Shown: positions 14,173-48,147 of the stretch, piece after piece | How the letters are laid out: each line of letters opens with the position of its first letter | Position numbering within the stretch: position 1 is the stretch's first letter | From: an uncultured Candidatus Saccharibacteria bacterium | Lineage (GTDB): Bacteria > Patescibacteriota > Minisyncoccia > Phycocordibacterales > UBA9973 | DNA: 64,000 bases | Assembly (NCBI GenBank): GCA_964573395.1 | Contig: CAZNJI010000001.1 | Location: 34,996 to 98,995 of the forward strand | Reading direction: 5' to 3' | Translations under genes and position numbers: made by a program | The notes under the pieces: model-generated | What the model saw: the letters and a program-made list of their open reading frames with translations, nothing else | Databases searched by the model: none | What the model was told of the DNA's origin: nothing

Positions 14173-14214
<42 letters not shown>

Positions 14215-14792: not shown

Positions 14793-14824
<32 letters not shown>

Positions 14825-14903
14825 GAAAGCGTAACAGCTCACTCATCAAGAGATCTTGCGCCGTAGATAATCGGGGCTTAAGTGTATTACCGAAATTGAG
14901 GGT

Positions 14904-15981: not shown

Positions 15982-16046
<65 letters not shown>

Positions 16047-17114: not shown

Positions 17115-17470
17115 CGTAAGACAGGTTGGTCTCCTATCTACTGCAGGCGTTGATACTTGAGGAGATTCGTTTCTAGTACGAGAGGACCGAAATGAACGAA
17201 CCTCTGGTGTATGGGCTCTTTCGCCAGAAGGACCGCCCAGTAGCTATGTTCGGAATGGATAACCACTGAAAGCATCTAAGTGGGAAGCCAGCTCCAAGAT
17301 TAGGTATCGTTGAGGGCCCTAGGAGATGACTAGGTTGATAGGCATTACGTGGAAGCGCAGCAATGCGTTGAGCGGAGATGTACTAATTGCCCGACTCCTA
17401 TTAGGAAATCTGGAAATCACATGAACACGCAAAACGTTATAGCAATATGACACAGAGTACCTTGAGTGCT

Positions 17471-17585
17471 CTGTGTTGGTGATTCGTCGCAGGGGTCACA
17501 CCTCTTCCCATTTCGAACAGAGAAGTTAAGCCCTGTAGAGCCGATGGTACTTTTTTTAAGGGAGAGTAGGCAGTCGCCAGCACAG
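17471..17585 (+). rRNA. rrf: 5S rRNA
   Basis: Helix I pairs CTGTGTTGGTG with CGCCAGCACAG. The conserved internal blocks CCCATTTCGAACAGAGAAGTTAAGCC and GAGAGTAGG are present. The gene lies 60 nt downstream of the 23S end. Confidence 0.85.
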
Positions 17586-22488: not shown

Positions 22489-23529
22489 TTATGTCAGTGT
22501 TGGGAAGAGTGCGGTAGAACCGATGTACGAAAGAGCACTAATGATGACAATGAGGAGCATGCCATAAGCCATGTGCTTTTTGTGGTGCTGCTCGTATTCC
22601 CGCAGTACAATGCCGATCATCGCCAGTAGTATTACTGCAACGATAAGAATATAGAGCGGAATGACGAATCCTCGCGGATTGGCAACTATCCGCTGCCAGA
22701 GAGAAGACTTTGCCTCGCCGTTATCCGGTACGGCAATAACCGGAACAATGTTCGTAGATTCGTTCACTGCTTCAATATACTGCGGATCTTCTTTTGTTAC
22801 TGCTATGGTTGGAGTCGTTTTTGCTCGAACCGCAGGTTCTGTTTTCTGCTCTTCTTCAATACCTGCAATGGTGCCGGCTTCATTTGGAGTTGGGATGGAA
22901 ATGTTCTGTGCCGGAGGAGCACTAATCGCCGGAACAGGCTCTTCAGCTGCAATTGCCGGCATGCCGAAGAGTTCGACGACGAATGTCGTTTCTCGTCCTT
23001 TATACATGCCGCGGGCCGTTGCAATACCAATTTCGGTGAATTTCGTACTCATAATGTTTGCGCGGTGGGTTGGGGAATTAAGCCAGGCATCCTGCACCGG
23101 AAGGGAGTCTTCAAAATTTACCGCCAGATTCTCTCCGGCATAAATGAAATTGTAGCCCGCTGCCTGGAACCAGTGCCACGGCGTTACTCCTTCAGGGCTC
23201 GTATGAGAAAAGTAGCTCTTCGCCGCCATGTCGTTTGCTTTCAGTTGGGCAGCTGCTTCAAGTGTGTTGCTTATCGCAAGCGTTGGCAAGGCTGCCTCTC
23301 TTCTGTCTTTATTCGTCAGGTCGACGAGTACGGAAGGGTAAACTTCTGCCGTAAAAGATCCGTTTCGAATGACTCTCGTGCCAACGGTTGAGAATGCAAA
23401 TATTCCCATCACGATTGCAATAAGCGCCCAAACCGCCCCTTCTTTGAGTACGTGCGGCAGGTGGCCGTTGTCAGGATGGGGGAAGACGCCCAGCTTTGCA
23501 TGGTGCGCTGCACGTTTGAGTAATTTCAT
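22489..23529 (-). CDS. Membrane-anchored CAP/SCP (PR-1-like) domain protein
   Basis: The CAP-domain blocks YFSHTSPEG...GENLA...HRANIMSTKFTEIGIA are present, with a C-terminal transmembrane helix. The internal Met (MKLLKRAAHH) is preferred as the start; the ORF opens at 23634. Confidence 0.7.
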   Translation of the reverse strand: MKLLKRAAHHAKLGVFPHPDNGHLPHVLKEGAVWALIAIVMGIFAFSTVGTRVIRNGSFTAEVYPSVLVDLTNKDRREAALPTLAISNTLEAAAQLKANDMAAKSYFSHTSPEGVTPWHWFQAAGYNFIYAGENLAVNFEDSLPVQDAWLNSPTHRANIMSTKFTEIGIATARGMYKGRETTFVVELFGMPAIAAEEPVPAISAPPAQNISIPTPNEAGTIAGIEEEQKTEPAVRAKTTPTIAVTKEDPQYIEAVNESTNIVPVIAVPDNGEAKSSLWQRIVANPRGFVIPLYILIVAVILLAMIGIVLREYEQHHKKHMAYGMLLIVIISALSYIGSTALFPTLT

Positions 23530-23622
23530 TTCAAAATAATACCATGACAGCTTGCTGAAGAGTATTTTATCCACTGCGAATATGTTGACATTTTTAGCAA
23601 CCCTTGTATGATTGCATGGTCT

Positions 23623-25047
23623 ATGAAAAGCCATTCTCCCACAAGAGAAGAAGATTTTTTAGTCCTTCCTGAGCGGCTTTCGGCTAAAACTATTTTTACC
23701 AAGCGTACGAACTACGTGATTCTGGCGACGGCTATCGTTGCAGTTTCTGCGCTGACGCTCCTTGGCACTATTTTCAATATCCCATTTCCTATCGTCCTTT
23801 CAGCTACTGCTGGAGCGTTTTATCTGACCCTTTATGTATTTAAGCTCTGGGTCGTAAAGCAGTCTTTTAAAGATGAAAAGCGGCTGATTCAGTACAGCGA
23901 GAACGATATTGTGGCAATGGACGAAAGTGCGCTCAAAACTTATACCGTGCTCATTCCGCTCTATAAAGAAGCGCCGGTCGTTCCGCAGATTTTAAGGGCA
24001 ATGGGTGCAATCGATTACCCTACAGAAAAAATTGAATTTCTGGTAACGCTTGAAGCGTATGATCACGAAACGCGTGAGGCGTTTGAGCGGGTGGAACTGC
24101 CAAGAAACTGGCGCATTATCACCCTTCCTGACGTACAACCAAAAACGAAGCCGAAGGCATTGAATGTCGCGCTTCGCGAAGCGAAGGGGGAATACTTGGT
24201 CATTTATGATGCCGAAGTTGTGCCTGAGCCGTTACAGCTCAAGCGCGCAGCGTTAGCATTTAAAGAATACCCAGGAGTTGCGGCGCTCCAATGCCGGCTC
24301 GATCACTATAACGCGAATCAAAACATATTGAGCCGTCTGTTTAATGCGGAATTTGTTTTTTATTACGATTTATTTCTTCCGGGCCTTGAAGTGCTTAATC
24401 TGCCGATCCCCCTTTCAGGGCACAGCACCCATTTTCGGAGGAATGCACTGCTTGCCATCGGATCATGGGATCCGTACAACGTTACCGAAGACGTTGACGT
24501 TGCAATTCGTCTCTACCGAGCCGGATACCGGGCACGAGTGCTTGATTCGGTAAGCGAAGAAGAGGCAACTGTAACGCTTGGCTCATGGCTTCGCCAGCGA
24601 ACCCGCTGGATCAAAGGATTCCTCGGAACGGCAATCGTGCATTACCGCTATCCGCTCACGCTTGCCGAAAATATCGGCGGATGGAGAAGTTTCGTGTTGT
24701 TCTGCATTTTGCTTCCCCTTTCTAATTTCATTCACGTACTGAATCTTTTATACTTCGCGCTGACGACGGTTTGGCTTTTGTTCCGCCCGGAATTCGTGCA
24801 GCTATTCTTTAATTTGCCGGTGCTCTACATCAGCTATACCGTTTCGGTGCTCGGCATTGCGACATCTTCATATTTAAATTTGATTGCGCTGTATCGCCGA
24901 AAGCGGTTCTCGCTCGTAAAATATGCGCTTCTTTCTCCGGCATACTGGGTATTGCTTGCCTATGCGGGAGTGCGAGCCATGTACCAGCTATTCCGCGCTC
25001 CAACGGTATGGGAAAAGACGACGCACGGCACGCATCTTTTGAAGTAA
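23623..25047 (+). CDS. Processive family-2 glycosyltransferase (integral membrane, QxxRW-type)
   Basis: The motifs YDAE, QCRLDHYN, HFRRN and QRTRWIKGF (QxxRW) are flanked by transmembrane helices. The protein is a paralogue of residues about 350-730 of the 1554-aa fusion protein at 40318-44982. Confidence 0.8.
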   Translation: MKSHSPTREEDFLVLPERLSAKTIFTKRTNYVILATAIVAVSALTLLGTIFNIPFPIVLSATAGAFYLTLYVFKLWVVKQSFKDEKRLIQYSENDIVAMDESALKTYTVLIPLYKEAPVVPQILRAMGAIDYPTEKIEFLVTLEAYDHETREAFERVELPRNWRIITLPDVQPKTKPKALNVALREAKGEYLVIYDAEVVPEPLQLKRAALAFKEYPGVAALQCRLDHYNANQNILSRLFNAEFVFYYDLFLPGLEVLNLPIPLSGHSTHFRRNALLAIGSWDPYNVTEDVDVAIRLYRAGYRARVLDSVSEEEATVTLGSWLRQRTRWIKGFLGTAIVHYRYPLTLAENIGGWRSFVLFCILLPLSNFIHVLNLLYFALTTVWLLFRPEFVQLFFNLPVLYISYTVSVLGIATSSYLNLIALYRRKRFSLVKYALLSPAYWVLLAYAGVRAMYQLFRAPTVWEKTTHGTHLLK

Positions 25048-25048
25048 C

Positions 25049-26842
25049 ATGATTGCAGTAATGAAAAAAATCAACCTTTCGCTTTTTTCGTGGATGATGC
25101 TCGGTATCGCAATCATCGGCATAGCCGCAACAGCACTAGTGTACCAAGAAGGGCTCACGCTCGCGCTCGTTGATGCGCAGTCCCATTTGAATTTCGGGAA
25201 GCTTTTTTTTGACAGCAGTACTCCGGGTATCAGCCAGATAGGGTTTTGGCCGCCGCTTCTGCACGCGCTCTTAGTGGTGCCTACCCAAATTCCTTTTTTG
25301 TATGAAACCGGCCTTGCGGCGGCAATCGTGCTTATTCCAGTACTCGGGATTGGCGCATACTATCTGTATAAGCTCATTTTCTTGCTCACCGCGAGTACGC
25401 GTTTCAGTATTGCAGGGGTAGTTATTTTCGCGCTTAATCCGTTCGTGCTTTATTACGCCAGCGTGCCGATGATGGAAACGCTCTTCCTCTCCATGATGAC
25501 CCCTTTGTTGTTTTATTTCGTGAAATGGCAGGAAACAGGCAAGATCGCATTCTTGCTCTATTCTGCATTTTTTGTTTCTCTTGCCTGTCTGGCTCGATTT
25601 GACGGATTCGCTTTTATTCCAGTTTTTGTTATTGCCGCCGGAGGTTTCCTTCTGTCCCGGAAAGTTTCAAAAGCTGAACTTGAGGCAACGCTCGTGCTTG
25701 CTGCTCCGCTCTTTTTAATCGGCGTCATTATCATCCTTTCATACAGCAGCATTTACGGAGATAGCCCGTTTGAATTCTTGAGCGGAAAATGGTCTGCATT
25801 TTCCCAGCAGAAATTTTTGTCACTTCCATCTCGATTTTCCCTCTCAGGATCCGTTACCTACTTGAGCCTAGCGGCATTTTCAATGCTCGGCAAAGGGCTT
25901 TCTTTTGCCGGCATTATCGGGCTCATTATTCTTACCTGTATTCGTCGAGCATTTGGACTTCTGTTGATTGTGCTTGCAAGCATGGCGCCTGCGGCGCTTG
26001 TCGTGTTCACGCTTTTTACTGGAAGCACGGTAATTTATCTGCCGACACTTCCTCCATTTACCGAATTCTTCAATGAACGCTACGGGCTGACACTCTTTTT
26101 ACCTGCCGTACTTGCAACGATATTCGGCTCATACGCACTTACCCTGCTTCGTCCAAGCCGCCGGTTTCTACGGCAGGGGCTATTCGTTCTTTCGTGGGCG
26201 CTTTTATCTTTCGGCATGCTCAGCACTTTTGCATTTAGCTTGAATACTTTTTTCGGAAACAAATTCTCTCTCTTAAAAGAAGCAACGGTGAACATTGTGC
26301 CACGAACCGAAGAGCAAAAAGTAATTGGCCAATATTTCTGCGACCATCCGCCGACAGGATACGTACTCATGACGCGCGCTCTTTTGAACGCTGTTCCCAT
26401 CCACTCCTGTACTCCGCTGAAGCAGTTCATCATTGAATCGAACTTCCCGTTCTTTGAGCAGACGATCGAGCGGCCATGGCTGTATGCGGAATATGTCGTC
26501 CTGCATAATGAAAATACCGCAAGCGATTACGAGCTTTCCTCTGATGAGCCGACAAGAATTTGGTCCAAGAGCCGGGAACTTTTCGATCGATTCTATGCGC
26601 CAGTGCAAAAAACGGCCCACTATACGCTCTACCGGCTCGATCAGGGAAGAGTGCGGGGGTATGCAGAATTCATCGGACTTCCGGAAGAGAAAATTTATAC
26701 CCTACAGGAAGTAAGGTCGAAGCTCTCCAGTCGTTATTATGAAGAGCTTGGCGTTGCCTCAGCGAAGGTGCTTGTCGATCAAGACGATGAATATCTCAAG
26801 AAAACGAAGCAGTTCGAAGGGTACGGCAGAGCTACTCGATAG
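25049..26842 (+). CDS. Polytopic membrane protein, GT-C-like glycosyltransferase candidate
   Basis: The protein has about 12 transmembrane helices and an extracytoplasmic DxD-like motif near the N-terminus (VDAQSHLNFG). It is a paralogue of 49676-51301; the shared blocks are D(A/Q)(Q/E)SHLN, LNP(F/N)VLY and (V/T)PM(M/T)E. Confidence 0.7.
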   Translation: MIAVMKKINLSLFSWMMLGIAIIGIAATALVYQEGLTLALVDAQSHLNFGKLFFDSSTPGISQIGFWPPLLHALLVVPTQIPFLYETGLAAAIVLIPVLGIGAYYLYKLIFLLTASTRFSIAGVVIFALNPFVLYYASVPMMETLFLSMMTPLLFYFVKWQETGKIAFLLYSAFFVSLACLARFDGFAFIPVFVIAAGGFLLSRKVSKAELEATLVLAAPLFLIGVIIILSYSSIYGDSPFEFLSGKWSAFSQQKFLSLPSRFSLSGSVTYLSLAAFSMLGKGLSFAGIIGLIILTCIRRAFGLLLIVLASMAPAALVVFTLFTGSTVIYLPTLPPFTEFFNERYGLTLFLPAVLATIFGSYALTLLRPSRRFLRQGLFVLSWALLSFGMLSTFAFSLNTFFGNKFSLLKEATVNIVPRTEEQKVIGQYFCDHPPTGYVLMTRALLNAVPIHSCTPLKQFIIESNFPFFEQTIERPWLYAEYVVLHNENTASDYELSSDEPTRIWSKSRELFDRFYAPVQKTAHYTLYRLDQGRVRGYAEFIGLPEEKIYTLQEVRSKLSSRYYEELGVASAKVLVDQDDEYLKKTKQFEGYGRATR

Positions 26843-26888: not shown

Positions 26889-29800
26889 ATGACAACTCAC
26901 TACCGTTTCCACATGAAAAAACTTGTCCAGGGACTCTTGATTCTCATGCTCTTTTTCAGCGTTGTGCCGAAACCGGCAGAAGCTGCTCTTCCTGATGGTT
27001 TTGAAATCAAAACAATCGTTTCCGGCCTGAATCTTCCCACTGCGTTTGCGTTCGCTCCGGGAAATAAAATCTTCGTCGCGCAAAAAGGCGGCACTATTCG
27101 GCTCATTGAAAACGGCGTACTCAACCCAACGCCGGTCATTGCCATTCCAAACGTAAATCAGGCGGGCGATCGAGGCGTGCTCGGTATTGCCACGGATCCG
27201 AATTTTCAAACGAATGGCTATATCTACGTATTTCACACGCACGAAACGAACTCAGCGAATCCAAATGGCCCGAAAACGGGAATCCTTCGCCGGTTAACCG
27301 TGGTAAACAATGTCGCTTCAATGGATTCATCAGTTATCCTTCTTGGAACAACATTCGGAAGCGCGCTGCAGCCATCGTGCACGAATTTTCCGGTAACCGC
27401 AGATTGCGTTCCGTCGGATTCGCTCGCGCATTCAACCGGGGGAATCTACTTCGGCCCTGACGGCAAGCTCTGGATTGCAACCGGAGACGGTTCTGGATTC
27501 AACGGAAACGACCCGCTCGCGCTTCGCAGCCAGAGCCTCGATGCGCTTTCCGGAAAAATTCTTCGCATCAATCCGGATGGCACCGCACCGGCCGACAATC
27601 CGTTCTATAACGGAGACCCGAATGCGAATCGCTCAAAGGTGTGGGCGCTCGGCTTTCGCAATCCGTTCCGCCTTACATTCCGCCCTGCAACTGGAAAGCC
27701 GTATCTGGCGGATGTCGGCTGGTACAGCTATGAAGAAATAAATTTTGGAACGAAGGGTGCTAACTATGGATGGCCATGCCGAGAAGGAGACATTGCAACA
27801 ACGTATAACTGCACTCCTTCGTCTGCGACTACTGAACCATTTTATAAGTACGGTAGAACCGATCTTGGGGCATCTATTACTGGAGGAGCGTTTTCGGGAA
27901 ATGCGTATCCAGCCGAATACCGCGATCAGTATTTCTTTGCGGACTTTTCAAACGATTGGATGAAGCGAATGACGATTGATCCGTCAGACAGTTCGATTGT
28001 CAGCATCGATAACGTCATCGACAGCGGCGCTGGCGGCATCGTGGATATTAAAGCTGGCCCTGACGGATCGATTTATTACATTTCGATTTACACCGGTTCG
28101 ATCAATAAGATCGAATATGATTCAAACCGCCAACCAACCGCGGTTATTGCTGCAACCCCAACAAACGGTACCGCACCGCTCTCTGTGCAGTTCAATTCAG
28201 CGGGAACCAATGATCCCGATGGAAATCTGGCCGGCATTGAATGGAATTTCGGCGATGGAAGCCCGGTTTCAACCGAGGCGGCTCCGACGCATACCTATGC
28301 GCTCGGAACCTACACCGCAACCCTTACGGCTCGCGATACACTGGGCCGCACCGGCGTCCAAACGGTAACCATTTACTCTGGCACCGAGCCAACAGGAGGC
28401 CAGGGAAATACGAAGCCGCACCTAACTGCAGTAACAACTGATCCAAATCCAACTGTTATTGGAAGAGACGTGAAAGTGAGCGCGACGGTTACTAATGCCG
28501 GCGGAACCGATCCGTTTGTCGTCGACATTGAAATCTATAATGCCGCAGGAAATCTCGTCGGCTCTCGAGCGTGGGAAAACATCAGTCTTGAAAACGGCGC
28601 AACCGAAACCTTTTCATTCGATTGGCTGCCGCCGCTTATCGGCACCTACCGCGTTTCGGTCGGCTTGTTCTATGACGGATGGACCGGCTTGCATGAATGG
28701 AACAATTTTTTCTACGAATTCGAAGTAGGAGAGCGCATTCCGGTAACCGAGAATCTCATCGCGAATCCATCTCTTGAAACCGAAGGATCAGCTGCAGGCG
28801 TTCCTGCTTCCTGGGAAAAAGGAGGATATGGAACCAATACTCGCACCTTCACCTATCCGGTAACGGGCAGCGGCAGTGCACGAGCGGCTCGCATTGATAT
28901 GTCCAATTTCTCATCGGGGGATGCGAAATGGATGAATGATCCTGTTCCGGTTGTTCCGGGCACTCAGTATCTGGTATCAAGCCGGTATCGCTCTGACGTG
29001 ACGACAACCGTTACCGCGCGCATCATAAAAACGGATGGCACATCTGTATATAAGTGGGTAAACGATACTCTTCCGACCGAAGGGTGGGCGCAGTTCGAAG
29101 GCACGTTCACTGCTCCGGCAAATGCTGCCAGCGTTGTCATTTTCCATTTGATTCGCACCAATGGGTATCTTGAAACGGATGATTACTCGCTCTCGGCAGT
29201 TGCTTCAGCCTATCAAGGAGACACTGTCCGGCCGACACTCAACATTACCGCGCCGACATTTGAACAAACGATTTCCGGCACATTTTCTTTTGCAGTAACG
29301 GCAAATGACGACAAGAAGGTAAAGCGAGTCCAGCTTATCCTTGACGGCAAACTCGTAGGCGGGAGCGATCTAACTGCGCCATTTAATTTTTCATATGACA
29401 CCAGCACGCTAGTCAACGGTACCCATGTGGTACAGGCGCAAGTATGGGATGCGGCAGGAAACACTCGCACCACGCTCCCGCTTTCATTTACCGTCCAGAA
29501 CGGGGGCAGTGCGCTTACGCCATCCGGAACCGGATCGCTTGATTTCGACGGGGTTGATGATTACGTGAATTTTGAGCGATGGAATATTGAAGAGACGAAC
29601 GGATTCACCGTTGAAGCGCTGTATACGCCGAAGATTGTTACTGCCGACGGGGTCATTCTTTCAAAGAGCGATGTCGGGTCGGTTGACTGGGAATTGGGAT
29701 ACAAGGCGCTTTCCGGCGGATCGGTTCGTCCGTACTTTACGGTAAAAACGCAAGAAGGAGCGGTTGCAACCGCCGAGGGCGGCGCTATTTCCGGCGGCGA

Positions 29801-30980
29801 ACTAGCGCACATTTCAGGAGTATTTGATGGAATGAAAATCCGTCTCTATAAAAATGGAAGCCTTGCCGCTGAAACAGCACTCGCAGGAACAGTAGCAACG
29901 AGCCAGAAGCTCGTATACATGGGAGCGCGGCCAGACATGAGCCAACCGCTGAAGGGAGAACTTGATTCGGTCCGCGTCTGGACGGTGCCAAAGACCATTA
30001 CTGAGATTCAGTCGATGGTAAATACTGAAGAGATCGGCACCGGAAACGGCCTCATCAAGCACTGGAAGCTCAATGAAGGATTCGGCCAAGACGTGATCGA
30101 CAGTTCAAATTCTGGCCACCATGGCGTGCTCGGAAACTCTGACGGAAATGATGAAAACGATCCGCGATGGATCGGCGGCTTGGGAAACGGCTCAACTGGA
30201 ACATTCTCCGTCGCGTATGTTGCAACAACTATTTCCGATAATCGGCTTGCTCCAGGAGAAGAGGTGACTATTACGTCATCAGTAAAAAATACTGGCGATA
30301 GCGCTGGGTTTGCAATTCTGTATTACGACATTTTTGATGAAACCGGGACCCGCGTGTATAACCGCTACTTTGACGGCGAGTCGCTCCTGGTAGGAGAACA
30401 GCGCGATTTCTCCATCAACTGGAGCACGAATACTCCTGGCCGGTACCGCGTTGCGTTTGCCGCAATCAAGCTCAATTGGAGCGGGCTCTATCATTGGGAG
30501 AACAGCGCGGCAACGTTTATCGTTGAAACGAACGAGCACCAGGTGTACGATGATGCGCTCAAGCCTGGCTGGGCGAACTGGTCATGGGAAACGACAACCG
30601 ATTTCAGTAATGCCGATTCTGCGCATGAAGGAACGCAGGCACTCTCGGTAACACCAACGACTCCATGGAGCGGGTTATATCTGCACACTGAGCCACTTGC
30701 AACGGATAACCGCACGATGCTCAACTTCGCCATTAAGGGAAAAACAGCCGGTGGTCAGGTACTGCAGCTTCGCCTCTACGATGAAAATCGCCAAGGGCTT
30801 CCGCGCGTGCCGCTCGCGCACTATCTTCCGGATGGAGTGAAAAGCGATGCGTGGTCGACCGTAATCATTCCGCTTGCTGATCTTGGCGCAGGCGGAGCTC
30901 CGATTACCGGATTCGTAATCCAGGGCATGAGCGGGGCAGTTGAACCGGTATACCTTCTCGACGCAATCAAGTTCCAATAA
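26889..30980 (+). CDS. Giant secreted multidomain protein: soluble aldose/sorbosone dehydrogenase-like beta-propeller, PKD, CARDB-like, CBM4/9-like, Ig-like, LamG/ConA-like domains
   Basis: A signal peptide is present (LLILMLFFSVVPKPAEA). The glucose/sorbosone-dehydrogenase propeller blocks are LNLPTAFAFAPGNKIFVAQKGG, IATGDGSG and LSGKILRINPDGTAPADNPF. The PKD motif is PLSVQFNSAGTNDPDGNLAGIEWNFGDGS. The CBM-like block is NLIANPSLETEG. The LamG-like block is LDFDGVDDYVNFE...GELDSVRVW. Confidence 0.85.
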   Translation: MTTHYRFHMKKLVQGLLILMLFFSVVPKPAEAALPDGFEIKTIVSGLNLPTAFAFAPGNKIFVAQKGGTIRLIENGVLNPTPVIAIPNVNQAGDRGVLGIATDPNFQTNGYIYVFHTHETNSANPNGPKTGILRRLTVVNNVASMDSSVILLGTTFGSALQPSCTNFPVTADCVPSDSLAHSTGGIYFGPDGKLWIATGDGSGFNGNDPLALRSQSLDALSGKILRINPDGTAPADNPFYNGDPNANRSKVWALGFRNPFRLTFRPATGKPYLADVGWYSYEEINFGTKGANYGWPCREGDIATTYNCTPSSATTEPFYKYGRTDLGASITGGAFSGNAYPAEYRDQYFFADFSNDWMKRMTIDPSDSSIVSIDNVIDSGAGGIVDIKAGPDGSIYYISIYTGSINKIEYDSNRQPTAVIAATPTNGTAPLSVQFNSAGTNDPDGNLAGIEWNFGDGSPVSTEAAPTHTYALGTYTATLTARDTLGRTGVQTVTIYSGTEPTGGQGNTKPHLTAVTTDPNPTVIGRDVKVSATVTNAGGTDPFVVDIEIYNAAGNLVGSRAWENISLENGATETFSFDWLPPLIGTYRVSVGLFYDGWTGLHEWNNFFYEFEVGERIPVTENLIANPSLETEGSAAGVPASWEKGGYGTNTRTFTYPVTGSGSARAARIDMSNFSSGDAKWMNDPVPVVPGTQYLVSSRYRSDVTTTVTARIIKTDGTSVYKWVNDTLPTEGWAQFEGTFTAPANAASVVIFHLIRTNGYLETDDYSLSAVASAYQGDTVRPTLNITAPTFEQTISGTFSFAVTANDDKKVKRVQLILDGKLVGGSDLTAPFNFSYDTSTLVNGTHVVQAQVWDAAGNTRTTLPLSFTVQNGGSALTPSGTGSLDFDGVDDYVNFERWNIEETNGFTVEALYTPKIVTADGVILSKSDVGSVDWELGYKALSGGSVRPYFTVKTQEGAVATAEGGAISGGELAHISGVFDGMKIRLYKNGSLAAETALAGTVATSQKLVYMGARPDMSQPLKGELDSVRVWTVPKTITEIQSMVNTEEIGTGNGLIKHWKLNEGFGQDVIDSSNSGHHGVLGNSDGNDENDPRWIGGLGNGSTGTFSVAYVATTISDNRLAPGEEVTITSSVKNTGDSAGFAILYYDIFDETGTRVYNRYFDGESLLVGEQRDFSINWSTNTPGRYRVAFAAIKLNWSGLYHWENSAATFIVETNEHQVYDDALKPGWANWSWETTTDFSNADSAHEGTQALSVTPTTPWSGLYLHTEPLATDNRTMLNFAIKGKTAGGQVLQLRLYDENRQGLPRVPLAHYLPDGVKSDAWSTVIIPLADLGAGGAPITGFVIQGMSGAVEPVYLLDAIKFQ

Positions 30981-30992
30981 TTATTTTTTGCT

Positions 30993-32312
30993 ATGAGCCA
31001 GGAATCAAGAACAATTGAAGATTCTGTATTTCGGTCGCCAAACCGGATTGCGGTAAACATTGCGCTCTTAGTGGCGTCCGTGCTTCTTTTGATCATTCTC
31101 ATTGTTTTCAAGTCGACTCGCGCCGGATTCGGACACTGGTTTCTGTTCAGCTACACAGTGCTCGTTACGGTGTTTCAGTTGTTCCGGCTTTCCGCTTCGC
31201 TCATTTTTCCGAAATTCCTCTCTCAGATAGTTTACCCGGTCAAGGCCGAGAATTACGAGCCAATGGTAACGATCGTCGTGCCGTGCAAAAACGAGGAAGC
31301 GGCAATTAAGCATACGCTCGAAGCGTGTTTTGAGGCTGAATATCCGAAGGAAAAGCTTGAGGTCATCGTGATCAATGACGGATCAACCGACGGCACGATT
31401 CACCAGATTGGCCTGGTGAAGAAAAATCACCCCGAACTCATCGTCATCGATTGGAAAGAGAACAGGGGAAAGCGCGAGGGAATGGCGGCAGGCTTCCGGC
31501 AGGCACGGGGAGAAATCGTCGTTCAGCTCGATAGCGACAGCTACATTGAGCCGAAGACGTTCAAAGAACTGATTCAGCCATTCGCAAACCCGGCTATCGG
31601 AGCGGTATGCGCGCACGGCGACGTGGCGAATGCGGACAAAAATATCATTACGAAAATGCAGTCGGGGTACTATTATGTTTCATTTCGGCTTCTCAAGGCT
31701 GCGGAATCAATCTTCTTCTCAGTGCTTTGCTGCAGTGGCTGTTCATCGGCATATAGAAAAGACATCGTGCTTCCGGTGCTTGATAGCTGGCTCAAGGAAT
31801 CCTTTTTGGGAGTTACCGTAAAGCACGGAGACGACCGGTCGCTGACGGGATGGGTATTAAAGCGCGGATTCCGCACCGTGTATACCGATCGCGCTCGAGC
31901 ATATACCATTGCTCCGGAAAACATTCGTCAGCTGATGAAGCAGCAGGTTCGCTGGAAAAAGTCGTGGGTATCGAACGCCTATTTTACCTTTAAATACATT
32001 TTTAAAACTGACCCACTTTTCGGAGCGCTTTATTACGTTCCGCTCATTCTTATCTCGTTCGTCACGCCGCTGGTTGCACTCTTGAATCTGTATCTGCTTC
32101 CAACCATCAGCGGAGAAAGCCCGGTCATTTATCTTCTCGGCGGAATCATCACCAGCTTGCTCTTCGTGATGTGCGCGCTCTATTACGCGCGCGGAGAACG
32201 CCGTTACATCGGCTATTTTTTGCTGTGGCAGATACTTTCAGCAGCCGTGCTGAGCTTCATCCTTTATTACTCGTTCGCTCGTTTCCGAGACCAGCGCTGG
32301 GGAACTCGCTAA
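30993..32312 (+). CDS. HAS/NodC/chitin-synthase-like processive GT2 (beta-GlcNAc-polymer synthase candidate)
   Basis: The motifs VVPCKNEE, NDGSTDGT, QLDSDSY, HGDDRSLTGW and QQVRWKKSW (QxxRW) are present, with N- and C-terminal transmembrane helices. The GDDRxLT motif is the one seen in hyaluronan and NodC-type synthases. Confidence 0.85.
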   Translation: MSQESRTIEDSVFRSPNRIAVNIALLVASVLLLIILIVFKSTRAGFGHWFLFSYTVLVTVFQLFRLSASLIFPKFLSQIVYPVKAENYEPMVTIVVPCKNEEAAIKHTLEACFEAEYPKEKLEVIVINDGSTDGTIHQIGLVKKNHPELIVIDWKENRGKREGMAAGFRQARGEIVVQLDSDSYIEPKTFKELIQPFANPAIGAVCAHGDVANADKNIITKMQSGYYYVSFRLLKAAESIFFSVLCCSGCSSAYRKDIVLPVLDSWLKESFLGVTVKHGDDRSLTGWVLKRGFRTVYTDRARAYTIAPENIRQLMKQQVRWKKSWVSNAYFTFKYIFKTDPLFGALYYVPLILISFVTPLVALLNLYLLPTISGESPVIYLLGGIITSLLFVMCALYYARGERRYIGYFLLWQILSAAVLSFILYYSFARFRDQRWGTR

Positions 32313-32316
32313 CAAC

Positions 32317-35052
32317 ATGCATTCCGTACATACCCACAAAAGAATCCGAATCGGAATCGTGGCAGCGGTTATTTTTTTGACTGCCGCAGTCGTTCTGGCG
32401 ATTCACATCATTAATGGAAGCGCTTTGCCGAATCGAATCCTGCACGATATCCGTCGCCTCTCTTCTCACGCCAGAGAAATGATCGTTCCATACAACATCA
32501 AGACGCCTGAGCTGTCTGCCGAAGCTGCACAGACCGTGCCAGTGCTGGTGTACCACGGCATCGGTTCGGATGATTCTCGCTATTCAATGAAGATAGCGCA
32601 GTTTCGAAACCACATGATCGCCCTAAAAGAAGCTGGTTTTCAAACTGCCTCGGCGGAAGATTTTTTCGCATTTCTTGAAGGAAAGAAAACCCTTCCGGCA
32701 AAATCATTCGTGCTGACGTTTGACGACGGACGGAAAGATAGTTACTACAACGCCGATCCGATTCTCGCGCGCCTCGGCTTTTCGGCGGTGATGTTCGTTG
32801 CTCCCGGCCAGTCGCTGGTAGAGTCAACGGAGAAATATTCTCGCTACTATTTAAATCCGATAGAGCTTTCCCGCCTCATGAAAACAGGGCGTTGGGAGAT
32901 TGGTTCGCACGGCGTTCAGGAAAACGGGGGATACATAGCGATTGACGCGGAAGGTACTACGGGGCAGTTTTTGAGCAATAAAAAGTGGCTTCCAGATGTT
33001 CTGCACATTGAAACTGATGAAGAATACAACGCGCGCGTTTCGTATGAATTATCTCAATCAAAGCAATCGCTCGAACTTTTTACCGGAAAACCGGTTATCA
33101 TGTTTTCATATCCATTCAGCGATTATGGGCAAGAAAGCCTCAACGCTTCTCGCGTTGCCAGTACGGCTATTAATGCGGCTGTCACAGATAACTACCGCTA
33201 TGCCTTTCGCCAGCAGTGGGGATACGACAGCGGATATATCGGAAATCGCCCAGGAGATAATCCGCTGTTCTTGAAGCGCATCGAGCCGGCATCCGACTGG
33301 ACCAATGAGCGACTTCTTTTGTTCTTGGAAGGCGGAGTCGACGTGTCTCTTGAAGAAGCAGCTCATCTGACGCTCGCTGAAAGCGCGCTTCGGTTTCGGG
33401 TTGCCTGGGGAGGAAAATCCGCCTTTGAATCGGAAAAAATTACCGTACAACCGGACGGAAACATTGCAAGCGTTGCCGCCATTCTTGACGGTACGCATAC
33501 TTGGAAGAATTATCAGGTAACGATGGATGCATCGCTTGATACCGCTTCTTCAGTTGCACTCTATCTTAGATCGCAGGAGCCGGGAGAAGGGGTCCGCTGC
33601 CGCTTTTCCTCTGACGCTGTGTACATAGAAACAGTGAAAAATGATGTAGCAACGTATCGAAAGCAGTATTCGCTCCAGGAAGAAGTAGGGAAGAATCGCC
33701 GTCTGAGTGCAAGTATTTTTGGAAATACGGTCGGTTGTTTTGAGGAAGGCGTGCTAGTTGCAGCAGGGAACATTCCAAACGTACTGCCTATTGGCGGAAC
33801 TGGTATTGAGTACTGGGCATACAACAACCGCGCACCGCTTGAAATCAGCTCTCTTTCCATTGTCCCAAGCGCGGCAATGAATGATTCACTGGTGAGCCAG
33901 TTTGAATCCCTTTCGGATAAATCGCTGGTTCGCGTGGTGCCAACGGCAGAACTGAAAGATGCATTGATAGCGGAATCGCCAAGAACTTTTCGGTATGCAG
34001 GGGAAAATCTCATAAACATGGAAACGTTCGTCCGTGGCGGTTCTGCAACGTATGGCGAAATCAGCGGTACGACTGCAAACATTATTCTTGCAAGGCAGGC
34101 AGCGGCCGGAGGGTTCTGGTTCTGGTCACCGCTTTCAGTTGCGCCACATCAAGAATATGCAATCGAGGCTTCCTATGAATCAACCATTGAAAGCGAGCTA
34201 ATGGTGCGATACGGCACACAGAGCGGCACAGTATGGAAATCAATCCGCATGCTGCCGGCAGGATCATTTTCATACCAAGAGGTTATTGAAATTCCGGAAG
34301 GCGCTCAAACAATGGAGGTTCTTCAGGTGATTCGCGATTCCGGAAGTTTGGCCGTTATTCATCCAAGCATCCGACTCTTGCAGTCTGGAAAATTCGCGCG
34401 CGGGATGGTAACGCTTTCATTTGATGACGGATATAAATCATTTATGACCAATGCTCTGCCGGTACTTTCTGAATTTAAGATGCCAAGCACGGTTTCAATT
34501 ATTACCAGCCATGTCGGCTATAGCCGGTATCTTTCCGCTCAAGACATAAACAGCATCAGCCGAAAAGGGCATGAGATTGCTGCCCATACTAGAACACATA
34601 CGCATCTTTCGGAAAATCAGGAAGAAAGTTTGATTACCGAGATTGTCGGCTCTTGGTATGATCTTTCAAAGGCCGGATACAAGATAACGTCATTCGTTTA
34701 TCCGTACGGAAACTTCTCGCTCGATGCGAAGAATATTGCCGCAAGAAAGTTTTCTGGTGCGCGAACGGTCAGCCGGGGTTTTAATACGAAAAATACCGAC
34801 CCGTACCTTCTGAAAGACCAGCTAGTAACCCGGGATATTTCTGTTGTGGCTGTTCAAGAGTATCTTGCCACTGCAAACGCGAATCAATCATGGCTTATTC
34901 TTGAACTGCATGAAGTTTTGAAAGAAGACAGTCAAAATGATTCAGAGTCAATTACGATTGCAAAATTACGTGAAATTTTAAAGGCTGTTCAGGATTCCGG
35001 GGTCGAAGTGGTAACGCTTGAAGAAGGCATAAGACAATTAAAAGAGCGCTAA
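32317..35052 (+). CDS. Membrane-anchored protein with two NodB-type polysaccharide deacetylase domains (PgaB/chitin-deacetylase-like)
   Basis: The first NodB domain reads VPVLVYHGI...FVLTFDDGRKDSYYNADPILARLGFSAVMFVAPG. The second reads MVTLSFDDGYKSF...HEIAAHTRTHTHL. The gene lies 4 nt downstream of the synthase gene. Confidence 0.85.
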   Translation: MHSVHTHKRIRIGIVAAVIFLTAAVVLAIHIINGSALPNRILHDIRRLSSHAREMIVPYNIKTPELSAEAAQTVPVLVYHGIGSDDSRYSMKIAQFRNHMIALKEAGFQTASAEDFFAFLEGKKTLPAKSFVLTFDDGRKDSYYNADPILARLGFSAVMFVAPGQSLVESTEKYSRYYLNPIELSRLMKTGRWEIGSHGVQENGGYIAIDAEGTTGQFLSNKKWLPDVLHIETDEEYNARVSYELSQSKQSLELFTGKPVIMFSYPFSDYGQESLNASRVASTAINAAVTDNYRYAFRQQWGYDSGYIGNRPGDNPLFLKRIEPASDWTNERLLLFLEGGVDVSLEEAAHLTLAESALRFRVAWGGKSAFESEKITVQPDGNIASVAAILDGTHTWKNYQVTMDASLDTASSVALYLRSQEPGEGVRCRFSSDAVYIETVKNDVATYRKQYSLQEEVGKNRRLSASIFGNTVGCFEEGVLVAAGNIPNVLPIGGTGIEYWAYNNRAPLEISSLSIVPSAAMNDSLVSQFESLSDKSLVRVVPTAELKDALIAESPRTFRYAGENLINMETFVRGGSATYGEISGTTANIILARQAAAGGFWFWSPLSVAPHQEYAIEASYESTIESELMVRYGTQSGTVWKSIRMLPAGSFSYQEVIEIPEGAQTMEVLQVIRDSGSLAVIHPSIRLLQSGKFARGMVTLSFDDGYKSFMTNALPVLSEFKMPSTVSIITSHVGYSRYLSAQDINSISRKGHEIAAHTRTHTHLSENQEESLITEIVGSWYDLSKAGYKITSFVYPYGNFSLDAKNIAARKFSGARTVSRGFNTKNTDPYLLKDQLVTRDISVVAVQEYLATANANQSWLILELHEVLKEDSQNDSESITIAKLREILKAVQDSGVEVVTLEEGIRQLKER

Positions 35053-35076: not shown

Positions 35077-38055
35077 ATGACTACTACCACTACGAAGATC
35101 GTTCGCACCATTATTTTGGGACTCTGCGCTTTTTCTGCAGTAATTTTAGTACGTTATTTTTCCGTTGATCATCCGCGTACCGTGCATGTGTTTACTCCGG
35201 CTCCATCGTTTCGCGCTGCTGCGATTGATCCATTCGAGCAGGAATTTGCTGTTGAAGAGGTGGGAGCAATGTCTGAATCTTCACATAGCACGTTTTGGCT
35301 TAATTCCGGAGGCAGAATGACCGTACAGAACGGCATTGCAAAGACCATACAAGGCGATTTACCGGCAAGTGATCGATGGTATCAGGAATACGCCCGCACC
35401 AATGCGCTTGATACCGACGGAGGCTTGCATCCGCAGAATTTGTTCCGTCTCGTTACCCGATCACAGTGGCAAGATGTCCGCCAGGAGGTATTTTTTAAAA
35501 TAGAAAAAACGAATATGAGCGACAGTCCGAACCAAAACGCGTCGAATGGTGTTTTGTTCTTTAATCGTTACAGAGATGCAGATAATCTCTATTATGTCGG
35601 TGTTCGCGTTGATGGAAATGCTGTTGTCAAAAAGAAAATTAATGGTGTGTATTACACCTTGGGGTTGAATAAAATTGTCGATGGCGTGTATAATGAAGCG
35701 TCACATCCAAATCTCCTTCCAACCGATAAGTGGATTGGAATGAAAACGGAAGTAAAAAACGAAACTGATGGCACAGTAACCATCATTCTTTTTACCGACA
35801 TTGGCCAAACTGGCACTTGGACGGAAGCACTCCGGGTCACTGATGATGGAAATCAATACGGTGGTCCTGTTTTCTCTGAAAGTGGTTTTGCGGGGATTCG
35901 ATCTGACTTTATGGATTTATCATTTAGCTCATACACAGTCAGTGACATAGTTGCGAATGCTCCTACTGTCCAAGTAGATCAAGTACCGCCAACCCTCACG
36001 CTTCTCGGAAATGAAAAGGAGGTTGTTCTGGTGGGTGCACCGTACAACGACGCAGGGGTAACCGTCACTGACAACATAGATAAGAAGCCAACACTCGTTA
36101 CGGCAGGGCTTCCGGTAAATACCCAAACGCCGGGAAAGAAGCAGGTTACGTACACCGCAACGGATGCCGCTGGGAACACCCAGTTTAAAAGCCGAACGGT
36201 AGAAGTAATTGCAAAAAGTGCGCCGCTCAGTGTTACTAACAAAACGCTTACCTGCGCGCAGCTGCTTGCTGCTTCAAGCTTCTACCGCGATAAGCACATG
36301 CAGGCGCTCCGTGAATATAACGCTCGCGTTGCCGCCAAAGATACCGCTACTGCTGAGACGCTTGAAACCATTGCCTGTACACCGCAGGCAATCTGGATTT
36401 CTAACTACACCGCCAGTACGGCAAATATTGAGTCTCATGTAAAAAGCAGGATCGCCGATGCGGAAAAAGAAGGAAAACTTCCAGTGTTTGTTATCTACAA
36501 CAGCCCGCATACCGGAACGTATAAATGGGGAAGCGGATTAACGCCGGGGCAAGGCCATCTTGATTGGATTTCAGCGGTAGTTCGCGGTATTGGAAGTTCC
36601 AACGCGTGGGTGGTTGTCGAACCTGATTTAATTGGCCTTTCATTTGAATACAACAGTGCTGAGCGTCTTGCCGCTCGAACGGATATTAAAAATGCAGTCG
36701 AGAAACTGCAAAGTGCGCCGAATATTCGCGTGTATCTTGATGCCGGACATAGCAATTGGCGGGGAATTCAGGATGTTGCCAAAGCACTCAATGAATCCGG
36801 CATTGCTGCCGCTGATGGCTTCGCAACAAACATTTCAAACTTTCGTTTTACCAACAACGAAATTGATTACGGCAACCAACTCTCTGCTCTAGTTGGCGGA
36901 AAGTCGTTTATTATTGATACAAGCCGAAATGGAAATGGCCATTCTCAAACAAACGAATGGTGTAATCCGAGCGGCAGAAGTATTGGTCCGGCGCCAACAC
37001 AGAATACGGGCTACGATAAAGTAGATGCTTTTGTCTGGATTAAGAATCCAGGAGAATCCGATGGAACTTGTAGTGGCGGTCCGACGCCAGGGCAATTCTG
37101 GCAGAGCTACGCGCTTGGATTGGTAGATACAGCGAAGAAACTTTCAGGAAATCTTGCACAGCAAGGGATTGTAACGGTAAGTAAAAACGTTAGTGCAAAC
37201 CCCACGCCAACTCCTGCACCAACCCCAACGCCAACACCCCCGCCGGCTCCTGCGCCAAAACCAGGGCCGGTAATTATTTCAGACGGAACAGATTCACGTC
37301 CAAACATTCCTGCAACGCCTACACCTACCCCTGCACCAACCCCAACGCCAACACCCCCGAAACCTACCACGCCAACCCCTGCACCTACTCCTGCTCCCGT
37401 TGCGCCAAAGCCGGCTCCGGCAACTCCAAAACCTACTCCAGCTCCAACGCCGAAACCAACTCCTGCACCATCTGCTCCTGTAGCCAGTAGCGGTGGAGGC
37501 GGAGGGGGAGGCGGCGGAGGTCGATCATCATCTGTATCTCAAACTCCTAAAGTCATTTCTTTAAACGATACAGCAACAGTGAATCGATTGAGAACGTCTG
37601 AACAATTGAAAAATTTAAATTCAGTGGCAGTTAAAGATTTTACAGCAGAAGGTATTGTTCCACCTCCACCTGAAGTAATAGCAATGCTTCAAGTGCCAGT
37701 AACTGCAATTGGCCCAGGAGTTACAGAAGAAAAAATTGAAATTGCCCGTGAACGAATTACTAATAGTCCGACTGGTGCAGGAATCATTGGAAAATCCATT
37801 GGTAATAATTTATCCTTCGGCGCACGCGGAACCGAAGTAGCTGAACTCCAAGTTTTTCTTGCTAAATTCCCAGAACTATATCCGGCTGGTCTAGTAACAG
37901 GGTACTACGGAAAACTGACCCGTGAAGCAGTGCAACGATTCCAGGTTTCGAACGGTATTTTTATTACCCCGCCAGCAGTGGGTACGGCAGGATACGGCTC
38001 GGCTGGCCCGCGCACTCGAACGCTTATCAATCAGATTCTCTTGGGGGCAAATTAA
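35077..38055 (+). CDS. Secreted glycoside hydrolase family 6-like enzyme with Ig-like N-domain, Pro/Thr linker and C-terminal peptidoglycan-binding domain
   Basis: The GH6 blocks are VFVIYNSPH...[29 protein letters not shown] and [14 protein letters not shown]. The linker is [14 protein letters not shown] and is followed by a Gly run. The C-terminal PG_binding_1-like block is [17 protein letters not shown]...[15 protein letters not shown]. Confidence 0.8.
37212..37359 (+). repeat. Identical 30-nt direct repeat within the Pro/Thr linker coding region
   Basis: The sequence CCTGCACCAACCCCAACGCCAACACCCCCG occurs at 37212-37241 and again at 37330-37359. A GGN run lies at 37490-37520. Confidence 0.6.
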
Positions 38056-39901: not shown

Positions 39902-40321
39902 ATGAAAAAGCTTTTCGGAGAATTGGGACGGTTTGGACTCGTCGGGGGAATCAATACCCTGGTGGATCTCGGAGTGTTCAATTTGCTTATTTTTTTCTCC
40001 GGCCAAAACATTGAAAGACACTACACTCTCTTTAAGGCACTATCGTTTACTGTTGCTGTCGTTAATAGCTTCATCCTGAATAAGTTTTTCGTCTTCAGAA
40101 GCAAGGAAACAGCGGCTAGTAAGATTTTCCCCTTCCTCATCGTCAGTCTAGGGGGGCTTGCTTTAAATAGCCTATTTGCATCGTTCATTTTCCACCAACT
40201 TAATGCCGCGTACGGACAAGCCGACGTGAAATTTCACGCCAACGTAGCGGCAATTATTAGTACCGGGGTCGTAATGGTCTGGAATTTTCTTGGTTACAAG
40301 AAAATTGTATTTAAACTATGA
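39902..40321 (+). CDS. GtrA-family membrane protein (polyprenol-sugar translocation)
   Basis: The N-terminus FGLVGGINTLVDLGVFNLL is followed by four transmembrane helices, and the protein is about 139 aa, all typical of GtrA. The gene overlaps the downstream giant gene by 4 nt. Confidence 0.8.
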   Translation: MKKLFGELGRFGLVGGINTLVDLGVFNLLIFFSGQNIERHYTLFKALSFTVAVVNSFILNKFFVFRSKETAASKIFPFLIVSLGGLALNSLFASFIFHQLNAAYGQADVKFHANVAAIISTGVVMVWNFLGYKKIVFKL

Positions 40322-46235: not shown

Positions 46236-46238
46236 CCT

Positions 46239-47348: not shown

Positions 47349-47349
47349 T

Positions 47350-48144: not shown

Positions 48145-48147
48145 TTT

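Follow-up and report, generated by a model that had tools for sequence, protein, structure and literature searches.

Six-bladed beta-propellers of the glucose/sorbosone dehydrogenase (GSDH) type are represented by soluble glucose dehydrogenase (sGDH) of A. calcoaceticus (1C9U/1CQ1) and by the aldose sugar dehydrogenases, here E. coli Asd/YliI (2G8S), S. coelicolor Adh (3DAS) and the enzymes from P. aerophilum (3A9G) and T. thermophilus (2ISM). These are exported, single-domain proteins of 350-450 aa and their context is sugar catabolism. The enzymes of auxiliary activity family 12 (AA12), i.e., CcPDH (6JT5/6JWF) and TrAA12 (6I1T), are likewise extracellular six-bladed propellers tied to carbohydrate metabolism, and CcPDH has a carbohydrate-binding module (CBM). 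In a July 2026 preprint about 22,000 six-bladed propellers for pyrroloquinoline quinone (PQQ) were retrieved with an AA12 model ('PQQ-6beta-Ln'); such propellers, with one or two Cys pairs, occur in 247 genomes belonging to the CPR (candidate phyla radiation, Patescibacteria) (10.64898/2026.07.10.737718). PQQ biosynthesis genes were present in no CPR genome and PQQ uptake from hosts was proposed; catabolic clusters of carbohydrate-active enzymes and cytochrome partners were described, synthase operons were not (10.64898/2026.07.10.737718). In Streptomyces the cslA-glxA-cslZ genes encode CslA, a synthase of glycosyltransferase family 2 (GT2), GlxA, and CslZ, a glycoside hydrolase of family 6 (GH6) (PMC9040799). 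Here we examine a protein of 1363 aa which joins a GSDH propeller to Ig-like and carbohydrate-binding modules. It is encoded at 26889..30980 (+) in a 64,000-nucleotide stretch of DNA from an uncultured Candidatus Saccharibacteria bacterium (contig CAZNJI010000001.1); the whole stretch is called the window. We favour, with moderate confidence, the view that it is an exported protein which handles glycan, and probably no free enzyme of sugar oxidation; its conserved Patescibacteria operon would serve to make and modify a beta-linked polysaccharide of the cell surface. This polymer would probably be cellulose-like, poly-N-acetylglucosamine (poly-GlcNAc)/chitosan-like, or both.

Within its family, which is very large and, though annotated, uncharacterised, the protein is nothing out of the ordinary. 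A full-length search gave 2004 proteins at E<=1e-10 among 8000 candidates scored. With the propeller alone the numbers of cluster representatives were 37,184 (E<=1e-3), 22,880 (E<=1e-10) and 5,118 (E<=1e-30). The best-named homologues belong to Nomurabacteria, Kaiserbacteria, Wildermuthbacteria, Pacebacteria, Parcubacteria and Minisyncoccia, all Patescibacteria, and the NCBI name for homologues is "PQQ-dependent sugar dehydrogenase". Domain classes were defined by searching the 120 best homologues with the protein's own segments; 109 of them, most from Patescibacteria, have the propeller, and in almost all of these the PKD segment matches right behind it. Class A, about 870 aa, consists of propeller, PKD, two CARDB and a CBM8-like module. 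Class B, to which the protein belongs (1190-1730 aa), has in addition an inserted LamG and sometimes CBM4_9-Big_7. Class C (1250-2360 aa) has propeller, PKD, repeated CBM4_9-Big_7 units and often a terminal deacetylase of carbohydrate esterase family 4 (CE4). GSDH-PKD followed by PA14, LamG or FG-GAP modules is found in Actinomycetota, Acidobacteriota and Gammaproteobacteria as well. A first-pass annotation of the window had regarded the fusion of a GSDH propeller with a lectin array as exceptional. A family of more than 2000 homologues, mostly from Patescibacteria, with three recurring architectures and with counterparts in other phyla contradicts this. Three Actinomycetota proteins of the same propeller clade (L011, L019, L026) display GSDH, PKD and five PA14, sometimes with a sub-threshold CBM60 or CE2_N.

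The argument for a role in glycan synthesis starts from the gene neighbourhood. The synteny sample comprises ten family members on contigs, i.e., six of class B (the window's own contig and the contigs of P0002, P0016, P0052, P0057 and P0060), two of class C and two short forms. In all six class B loci a GT2 synthase of about 480-518 aa with TED and QxxRW motifs and, after it, a GT-C-like membrane protein of 470-665 aa are encoded upstream of the propeller gene; in most of them GtrA and a GtrB-like GT2 lie in between. A GH6 gene is present in each of the five class B loci for which downstream sequence exists. It directly follows the propeller gene in four (L003, L089, L090, L091); in the window it is three genes past it. 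By local BLAST the window's GT2 is 46-56% identical to its counterparts in the five other loci, the membrane protein 32-43% and the GH6 protein 40-53%. A NodC-like GT2 and a deacetylase occur in the window and in L003. Adjacency to a membrane GT2 synthase is conserved in 6/6 class B and 2/2 class C loci.

Gene fusions point in the same direction. P0016 (L004 10001-15178), a protein of 1725 aa, consists of a cytoplasmic GtrB-like GT2, one transmembrane helix and the whole protein from propeller to CBM8; the same fusion recurs in two cluster mates of P0016, nearly identical to it in sequence and of different source. In many class C homologues the CE4 deacetylase is part of the same polypeptide, at its C-terminal end. 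Several class C homologues start with a domain of 3-4 transmembrane segments which has a conserved motif, SAFQT[YH]xKxGG, and no Pfam match at E<=1. In both class C loci of this kind that were examined (L005 8957-17095, L086 8961-16426) a 345-aa PgaC-like GT2 ends 5 nt upstream, and the N-terminal domain may be a new synthase accessory domain. Glycosyltransferase adjacency and fusions, CBMs of the beta-glucan type and the GH6 partner jointly argue for an extracellular handler of the cell's own beta-linked glycan.

The open reading frame begins with ATG, and its coordinates include the stop codon; a sequence identical to the protein is found on two public contigs (P0001 among public assemblies). 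All features described in the following are on the plus strand unless indicated otherwise. A signal peptide, aa 1-32 (26889..26984), with predicted cleavage at MTTHYRFHMKKLVQGLLILMLFFSVVPKPAEA/A, contains the sole hydrophobic segment of the protein (aa 9-27), followed by an A-x-A motif (AEA/A). Translation may instead start at Met9. The GSDH-type six-bladed propeller extends over aa 33-412 (26985..28124), as derived from Pfam, AlphaFold2 (AF2), Foldseek and residue mapping. Pfam GSDH (PF07995) matches aa 48-398 with E 5.7e-48 and 164.3 bits vs a cut-off of 25, over profile positions 2-322 of 332. All four cysteines of the protein are located in the propeller and each is invariant or >=95% conserved in the family; they form the pairs C164/C173 and C297/C308, consistent with two disulfides. 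Export is supported by the N-terminal segment, the cleavage motif and the confinement of the cysteines to the propeller, and no other membrane segment is predicted in the protein.

The propeller is followed by a PKD domain, aa 413-494 (28125..28370; PKD_4 E 1e-15, PKD E 6.6e-11), and a first Ig-like CARDB, aa 510-591 (28416..28661; E 3.5e-12). CBM_4_9, aa 631-751 (28779..29141), scores 29.4 bits vs a cut-off of 25.9 and, with the segment scanned alone, 32.2 bits; class C homologues have 3-6 copies of it. Next come Big_7, a bacterial Ig domain, at aa 782-850 (29232..29438; E 3.8e-13), and Laminin_G_3, a ConA-like lectin/glucanase fold, at aa 887-1041 (29547..30011; E 8.6e-19, profile positions 1-151 of 151). 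A second CARDB-like Ig domain at about aa 1112-1190 (30222..30458) reaches 20.4 bits, slightly under the cut-off of 22.7, and has reciprocal matches with the first CARDB and with the CARDB domains of homologues. The C-terminal module, aa 1201-1363 (30489..30977), is CBM8-like by homologue profile, AF2 and Foldseek. It has a conserved motif, Y-x-D-x-L-x-x-G-W-x-N-W-S-W, and is common to 45 of the 120 homologues. A profile of this domain from 17 homologues matches PDB 7T7Y, a family 8 CBM from Dictyostelium and the only solved CBM8, with E 1.3e-18 over 145 residues. The AF2 model (pLDDT 93.2) superposes on this structure, its best Foldseek match (template modelling score, TM-score, 0.79/0.84; root-mean-square deviation 2.1 A), ahead of CBM29, CBM11 and CBM30.

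Much of the first-pass annotation is borne out by these data. The reading frame of 1363 aa has exactly the proposed boundaries, and the modules it named (GSDH, PKD, CARDB, CBM, LamG) are each backed by Pfam. Secretion agrees with the single N-terminal hydrophobic segment, the AEA/A site and the four conserved propeller cysteines, and the lectin/CBM array with Pfam, homologue profile and Foldseek evidence. Its module list was correct as far as it went; Big_7, the second CARDB-like domain and the C-terminal CBM8-like module had gone unmentioned.

The propeller fold, also anticipated there, is real. The AF2 model has pLDDT 88.6 and pTM (predicted TM-score) 0.86. In Foldseek the closest structures are 3A9G, sGDH (1CQ1), 2ISM, 7CDY, 3DAS and 2G8S with E 1e-25 to 1e-22 and target-normalised TM-scores of 0.65-0.87. 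The PQQ sugar dehydrogenases are followed by the Hedgehog-interacting protein (HHIP) and then by the AA12 enzymes, to which the match is much weaker (E ~1e-14, TM-score ~0.6).

The cofactor pocket presents a mixed picture. Residues were mapped with HMMER, by aligning both the query and a family profile built from 17 sequences with sGDH and E. coli Asd; conservation figures refer to 105 CPR propeller sequences. The roles of the sGDH residues (catalytic, quinone, Ca, PQQ carboxylate) are those which we take from the sGDH structure papers. The quinone end of the pocket is preserved. His144, presumably the catalytic base, corresponds to H181 (100%), and the presumed quinone contacts Arg228 and Asn229 correspond to R257 (100%) and N258 (98%). 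Gly247, which we assume to be in the Ca loop, is G277 (104/105), and Asp252/Glu253, presumed Ca loop and Ca ligand, are E282/E283 (100%/92%). At the position of sGDH Pro248, where the ligand is presumably a backbone carbonyl, W278 is 100% conserved. As judged from the alignment the positions of the active-site Ca2+ ligands appear to be retained. The other end of the pocket differs. Gln76 (presumably substrate/PQQ) is replaced by R95 (Arg in 91%), and the presumed PQQ contacts Gln231 and Gln246 by F260 (Phe or Tyr) and V276 (Val 100%). Of the residues which we take to bind the PQQ carboxylates, Lys377 is S354 (Ala, Ser or Gly), Arg406 is G383 (Gly, Trp or Phe) and Arg408 is V385 (Val 95%). The equivalents of these three are non-basic at nearly every site in the 105 sequences, the exception being one His in the Lys377 column. 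V276, W278, C297 and E299 of a GWPCREG motif, and the two Cys pairs are clade-specific invariants, and R95 and R261 are conserved arginines gained relative to sGDH.

As a control for the mapping, at least 80 non-CPR loci (28-40% identity), taken from among the matches listed in a reference-genome scan with a propeller alignment, were placed on the same profile. Three signatures emerged. The canonical one, RNPQG...HGPDE, whose last positions are K/R and R, includes one example from a Saccharibacteria metagenome-assembled genome; canonical-type sequences keep K/R, R, Q and H at the PQQ positions of this very alignment. The signature of the protein described here, RNx[FYW][RT]...VGxxEE with non-basic residues at the carboxylate positions, is in the majority among the non-CPR matches listed, which for this type come from Acidobacteriota, Actinomycetota, Planctomycetota, Chloroflexota and Proteobacteria. 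A third signature is NGPDE. The propeller therefore belongs to a pan-bacterial, non-canonical clade, and since this clade has lost the carboxylate Lys/Arg/Arg its PQQ dependence is unproven. To claim that the clade no longer binds PQQ at all would go too far, and we rejected this idea: the quinone-end contacts are all kept, and R95 and R261 could compensate. The Saccharibacteria example (L070 9746-11023), a small GSDH protein of 425 aa, shows most of the canonical sGDH-type signature (Q, G, H-G-P, D-E, K); the classical type hence exists in some CPR bacteria, too. The first-pass annotation had proposed to look for PQQ- and Ca-binding residues: His, Arg/Asn and the Ca-binding Glu are indeed kept, the PQQ-carboxylate residues are replaced family-wide.

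Four metal motifs are given in the preprint cited above, NERD..D, NGRD..D, HGRD..E and NQVD..G, and none is present in the protein (no [NH][EGQ][RVC]D). Of the nine residues with which CcPDH binds PQQ it has equivalents of the His and the Arg-Asn pair and a first-blade Arg (R95); the other five have no reliable CcPDH alignment. Because the motifs are absent and the structure is closer to sGDH than to AA12, the set of propellers in the preprint is probably a clade other than the one treated here. Its catabolic gene clusters and cytochrome partners likewise had no counterpart among the loci examined.

These findings bear on a catabolic explanation, which we consider unlikely. The protein would be a PQQ-dependent extracellular sugar dehydrogenase with PQQ scavenged from a host or the environment; its CBMs would target external cellulose, beta-glucan or chitin, and it would oxidise the reducing ends of GH6 products. 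It would resemble the fungal AA12 pyranose dehydrogenases that have a CBM. sGDH, Asd and Adh are the nearest structures, and the retention of the His144, Arg228 and Asn229 equivalents and the Ca-binding Glu is hard to explain without a quinone-like cofactor. The gained arginines 95 and 261 could stand in for the lost carboxylate ligands, and the GH6 partner and beta-glucan-type CBMs fit degradation. Against this stand the almost uniformly non-basic equivalents of Lys377, Arg406 and Arg408 and the replacement of Gln231 and Gln246. The score for NCBIfam TIGR03606 (non_repeat_PQQ) is 99.2 bits vs a cut-off of 434.55; this model is narrow, and Asd-type enzymes would probably fail it as well. Neither the operon nor the 8 non-CPR clade members examined yielded a cytochrome or any other electron acceptor, and CPR genomes usually have no respiratory chains. 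A purely catabolic role is also at odds with the fusions to GT2 and to synthase-adjacent membrane domains. The preprint can be quoted on either side: it reports six-bladed PQQ propellers from CPR genomes and proposes host PQQ, yet by its account CPR genomes have no PQQ synthesis (10.64898/2026.07.10.737718), NERD..D and NGRD..D are missing here and its clade is probably a different one.

Alternatively, the protein might be a non-catalytic surface adhesin, a lectin array by which an episymbiont attaches to host cell-wall glycans, with the propeller as a binding module as in HHIP, which uses its propeller to bind protein and heparin without PQQ. Ig-like spacers and three glycan-binding modules are a typical adhesin-like layout. 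HHIP propellers, the heparin complex included, are clear structural neighbours, short forms are encoded outside of glycan operons, and the canonical PQQ carboxylate ligands are lost. We nevertheless consider this improbable, somewhat more so than catabolism. The His/Arg/Asn/Glu centre is strictly invariant, both across the 105 sequences and throughout most of the pan-bacterial clade, free-living phyla included, which suggests chemistry and more than binding. The protein has no cell-wall anchor of its own, neither an LPXTG motif nor a peptidoglycan-binding domain; the neighbouring GH6 protein does have such a domain. The conserved synthase operon would be left unexplained. Thus, of the surface 'sugar-sensing or sugar-oxidising adhesin' initially imagined, the fold, the array, export and glycan context hold, and the premise of an exceptional fusion falls. 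The protein may be an adhesin, but the conserved operon directs attention to the cell's own glycan first.

In the window the genes between 23608 and 38055 are on one strand, 1-46 nt apart, and the placement of the propeller gene inside a glycan-synthesis operon, as had been claimed, is supported by its same-strand neighbours. The first gene (23608..25047) encodes a multi-transmembrane GT2 of 479 aa with TED and QxxRW motifs, i.e., of the synthase type (Pfam Glyco_trans_2_3); its best NCBIfam models are PgaC_IcaA and cellulose synthase, both under cut-off. The second (25049..26842) encodes a multi-transmembrane protein of 597 aa, a candidate GT-C-fold glycosyltransferase. It has no match in Pfam (even at E<=10) or NCBIfam. 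The same-position proteins of L003, L004, L089, L090 and L091 are 32-43% identical to it over the full length, and those of L089, L090 and L091 weakly match PF13231 PMT_2; judging by these orthologue matches only, it is probably a GT-C enzyme. Downstream of the propeller gene follows a 439-aa GT2 like NodC, chitin synthase and hyaluronan synthase (30993..32312; Pfam Chitin_synth_2 E 5.6e-23) with the motifs GDDRxLT, QQxRWxKS and a C-terminal WGTR. Its best NCBIfam matches are NodC (159 bits, full-length) and then PgaC (133 bits), both under cut-off. Next is a membrane-anchored double CE4 polysaccharide deacetylase of 911 aa (32317..35052; two stretches of Pfam Polysacc_deac_1), best matched by PgaB, HfsH, IcaB and NodB, all under equivalog cut-offs. 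Its CE4 domains lie at aa 73-279 (PgaB-like) and aa 692-908 (HfsH/IcaB-like), with about 400 family-less residues between them. The last gene (35077..38055) encodes the GH6 protein of 992 aa (Glyco_hydro_6 E 2.4e-53). Its build is unusually elaborate: some 300 N-terminal residues without assignment are followed by an Ig-like domain, GH6, a Pro/Thr/Ala-rich linker of about 200 aa, a run of 11 Gly and PG_binding_1; its orthologues in other loci have only 372-694 aa.

The GtrA and GtrB-like functions, directly upstream of the propeller gene in other loci, are about 9 kb downstream in the window. A gene for a GtrA-like flippase (GtrA_DPMS_TM match) is at 39902-40321, within 39902..44982. Behind it, to 44982, a protein of 1554 aa is encoded in which a GtrB-like polyprenyl-phosphate glycosyltransferase (the first ~240 aa) is fused to a second GT2, of the synthase type, and to a GT4. 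Related loci have the GtrB-like part as a gene of its own (about 220-270 aa). It shares 46% identity with the small GT2 of L003; this small GT2 matches the NCBIfam models for PpgS, dolichyl-phosphate hexose transferase and AglJ weakly, over the full length. The glycan cluster reaches to about 52 kb, with more glycosyltransferases, a pyruvyl transferase and a second GT-C-like protein. Within it the stretch 46001-50000, which encodes a GT4, a GT2 and a DUF7657 membrane protein, has a low GC content (0.347 vs ~0.48 around) and gives the impression of a variable or acquired section of the cluster.

Promoter and terminator scans of the window gave sites no more frequently than in shuffled sequence. 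The best promoter-like site, 23585-23612, has TTGACA, a spacer of 16 nt and TATGAT (11/12 matches) and overlaps with the initial ATG of the 479-aa GT2. Transcription of the operon may begin here, and translation of the GT2 at a downstream Met. A protein with a CAP (cysteine-rich secretory protein) domain is encoded next to the glycan cluster in three loci, the window (22489-23634, minus strand), L003 (20503-21540) and L005 (23629-24855). The window also contains a 23S rRNA gene, within 13658-17582, which has 3749 nt vs a model of 2925 positions, i.e., about 800 nt extra (insertions or an intron), with 5S next to it; a 16S rRNA gene is nowhere in the window. An extended 23S without adjoining 16S is typical of CPR bacteria.

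The same genes permit another interpretation, namely that the propeller protein and the GH6 protein are substrates of a protein O-glycosylation of the protein mannosyltransferase (PMT) type, carried out by the GtrB-like GT2, GtrA and GT-C proteins, and are not synthase partners. GtrA, a polyprenyl-phosphate-glycosyltransferase-like GT2 and a PMT_2-like protein are indeed encoded immediately upstream in most class B loci, the propeller protein is rich in Thr and Ser, and the GH6 protein has a long Pro/Thr-rich linker of a kind that is glycosylated by actinobacterial PMTs. We hold this to be very improbable, as it leaves unexplained the extra synthase-type GT2 (TED/QxxRW), which is always present, the NodC-like GT2 and deacetylase of the window and L003, and the deacetylase fusions and PgaC-like neighbours of class C. 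Such O-glycosylation is compatible with the building of a surface glycan, and both could be true at once.

How might the protein act in the building of a surface polysaccharide? It would be exported by the Sec pathway and then either be released by signal peptidase or remain tethered by its N-terminus; either way the propeller would be nearest to the membrane. In every architecture having an N-terminal propeller this is the module nearest the membrane. The membrane GT2 synthases, encoded on both sides of the propeller gene, would extrude a beta-glycan chain. Synthases of this type let the reducing end out first, as is established for BcsA and for chitin and hyaluronan synthases. The His/Arg/Asn/Ca2+ centre kept in the propeller is the one that in soluble glucose dehydrogenase engages the anomeric C1-OH of an aldose. 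Because the reducing end is out first, GSDH chemistry is directed at the anomeric C1-OH, and the propeller is closest to the membrane, we infer that the propeller would capture the nascent chain by the reducing end or close to it, and it may oxidise this end to a lactone or aldonate if PQQ can be scavenged. CBM4_9, LamG and the CBM8-like module, spaced by PKD, CARDB and Big_7, would hold the polymer at the surface, the co-encoded GH6 would trim it and the CE4 enzyme would deacetylate it.

A more far-reaching proposal can only be made tentatively, and we regard it as rather doubtful. In Patescibacteria, and maybe beyond them, a distinct GSDH-like clade lacking the classical PQQ-carboxylate pocket would have been recruited to serve membrane glycan synthases as their dedicated extracellular partner; the propeller would grip the nascent reducing end and pass the chain along the CBMs to the deacetylase and GH6. 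If true, monoderm ultra-small bacteria would assemble and tailor exopolysaccharide with a type of machine so far undescribed, which could work cofactor-free or on host PQQ.

Several points weigh against a surface-glycan partner. The protein has no membrane anchor, just a signal peptide that looks cleavable, so coupling to a synthase would have to be non-covalent. GH6 and CBMs are a signature of cellulose degradation also. GtrA, GtrB and GT-C might serve instead to glycosylate the secreted proteins, and the GT-C assignment of the 597-aa protein, coming from PMT_2 matches in orthologues, is weak. The synteny sample of six class B, two class C and two short-form loci is small. Both short forms examined (the short forms have ~870-1090 aa) are in unrelated neighbourhoods, which indicates that the propeller-PKD(-CARDB) core has no constant need of an adjoining synthase.

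The subject deserves attention nevertheless. Patescibacteria make up a large share of bacterial diversity, yet little is known about the construction of their envelope and their attachment to hosts. The operon with its propeller-CBM protein, synthases, GH6 and deacetylases is a concrete candidate for the machinery of a surface glycan layer. Thousands of database entries named "PQQ-dependent sugar dehydrogenase" are in a clade without the residues known to hold PQQ, and their carriers reportedly do not make PQQ. Metabolic reconstructions which count such genes as sugar oxidation may be wrong. Should the propeller be a redox enzyme on scavenged PQQ, a new form of host dependence would emerge. 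In the literature searched, on Patescibacteria/CPR combined with PQQ sugar dehydrogenase/GSDH, the preprint cited above was the one relevant paper, and neither the non-canonical pocket nor the conserved synthase/GH6 operon was described.

The protein has features in common with several known systems. With sGDH and the aldose sugar dehydrogenases it shares the six-bladed propeller (TM-score up to 0.87), export, and an aligned catalytic His, Arg-Asn pair, Ca-loop Gly and Ca-binding Glu. It differs by about 950 aa of added Ig-like and carbohydrate-binding modules, by the replaced equivalents of Lys377, Arg406, Arg408, Gln231 and Gln246, and by a context of glycan synthesis instead of sugar catabolism. 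HHIP demonstrates that a GSDH-like six-bladed propeller can be a binding module without PQQ, glycosaminoglycan included (7PGM); its sequence match to the protein covers the first blades only (E ~1e-9) and leaves the His/Arg/Asn/Glu segment unaligned. The 439-aa GT2 of the window and the deacetylase that follows it have their best matches in the poly-GlcNAc machinery (PgaC/IcaA, PgaB/IcaB) and NodC/NodB. Class C has poly-GlcNAc-like traits as well, with a PgaC-like GT2 adjoining the propeller gene in 2/2 loci and CE4 in many polypeptides. Those systems have neither a GSDH propeller nor CBM4_9/CBM8-type modules, and the scores are under equivalog cut-offs.

This leaves the CslA-GlxA-CslZ system of Streptomyces, in which a GT2 cellulose synthase depends on an extracellular oxidase, which complexes with CslA and boosts it, and is clustered with a GH6. 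GlxA is a copper radical oxidase, non-homologous to GSDH, membrane-anchored and without a CBM array. The propeller protein shows no homology to GlxA or BcsB, so that its assignment to the class of synthase partners is made by analogy and not by family membership. The CPR operon, however, comprises the same three roles, a synthase, an extracellular partner and a GH6. Peptidoglycan-binding proteins are encoded near the Streptomyces genes, and in the CPR operon the GH6 protein has PG_binding_1. By analogy, with a likeness confined to function and gene organisation, CslA-GlxA-CslZ is the closest functional precedent for the operon described here.

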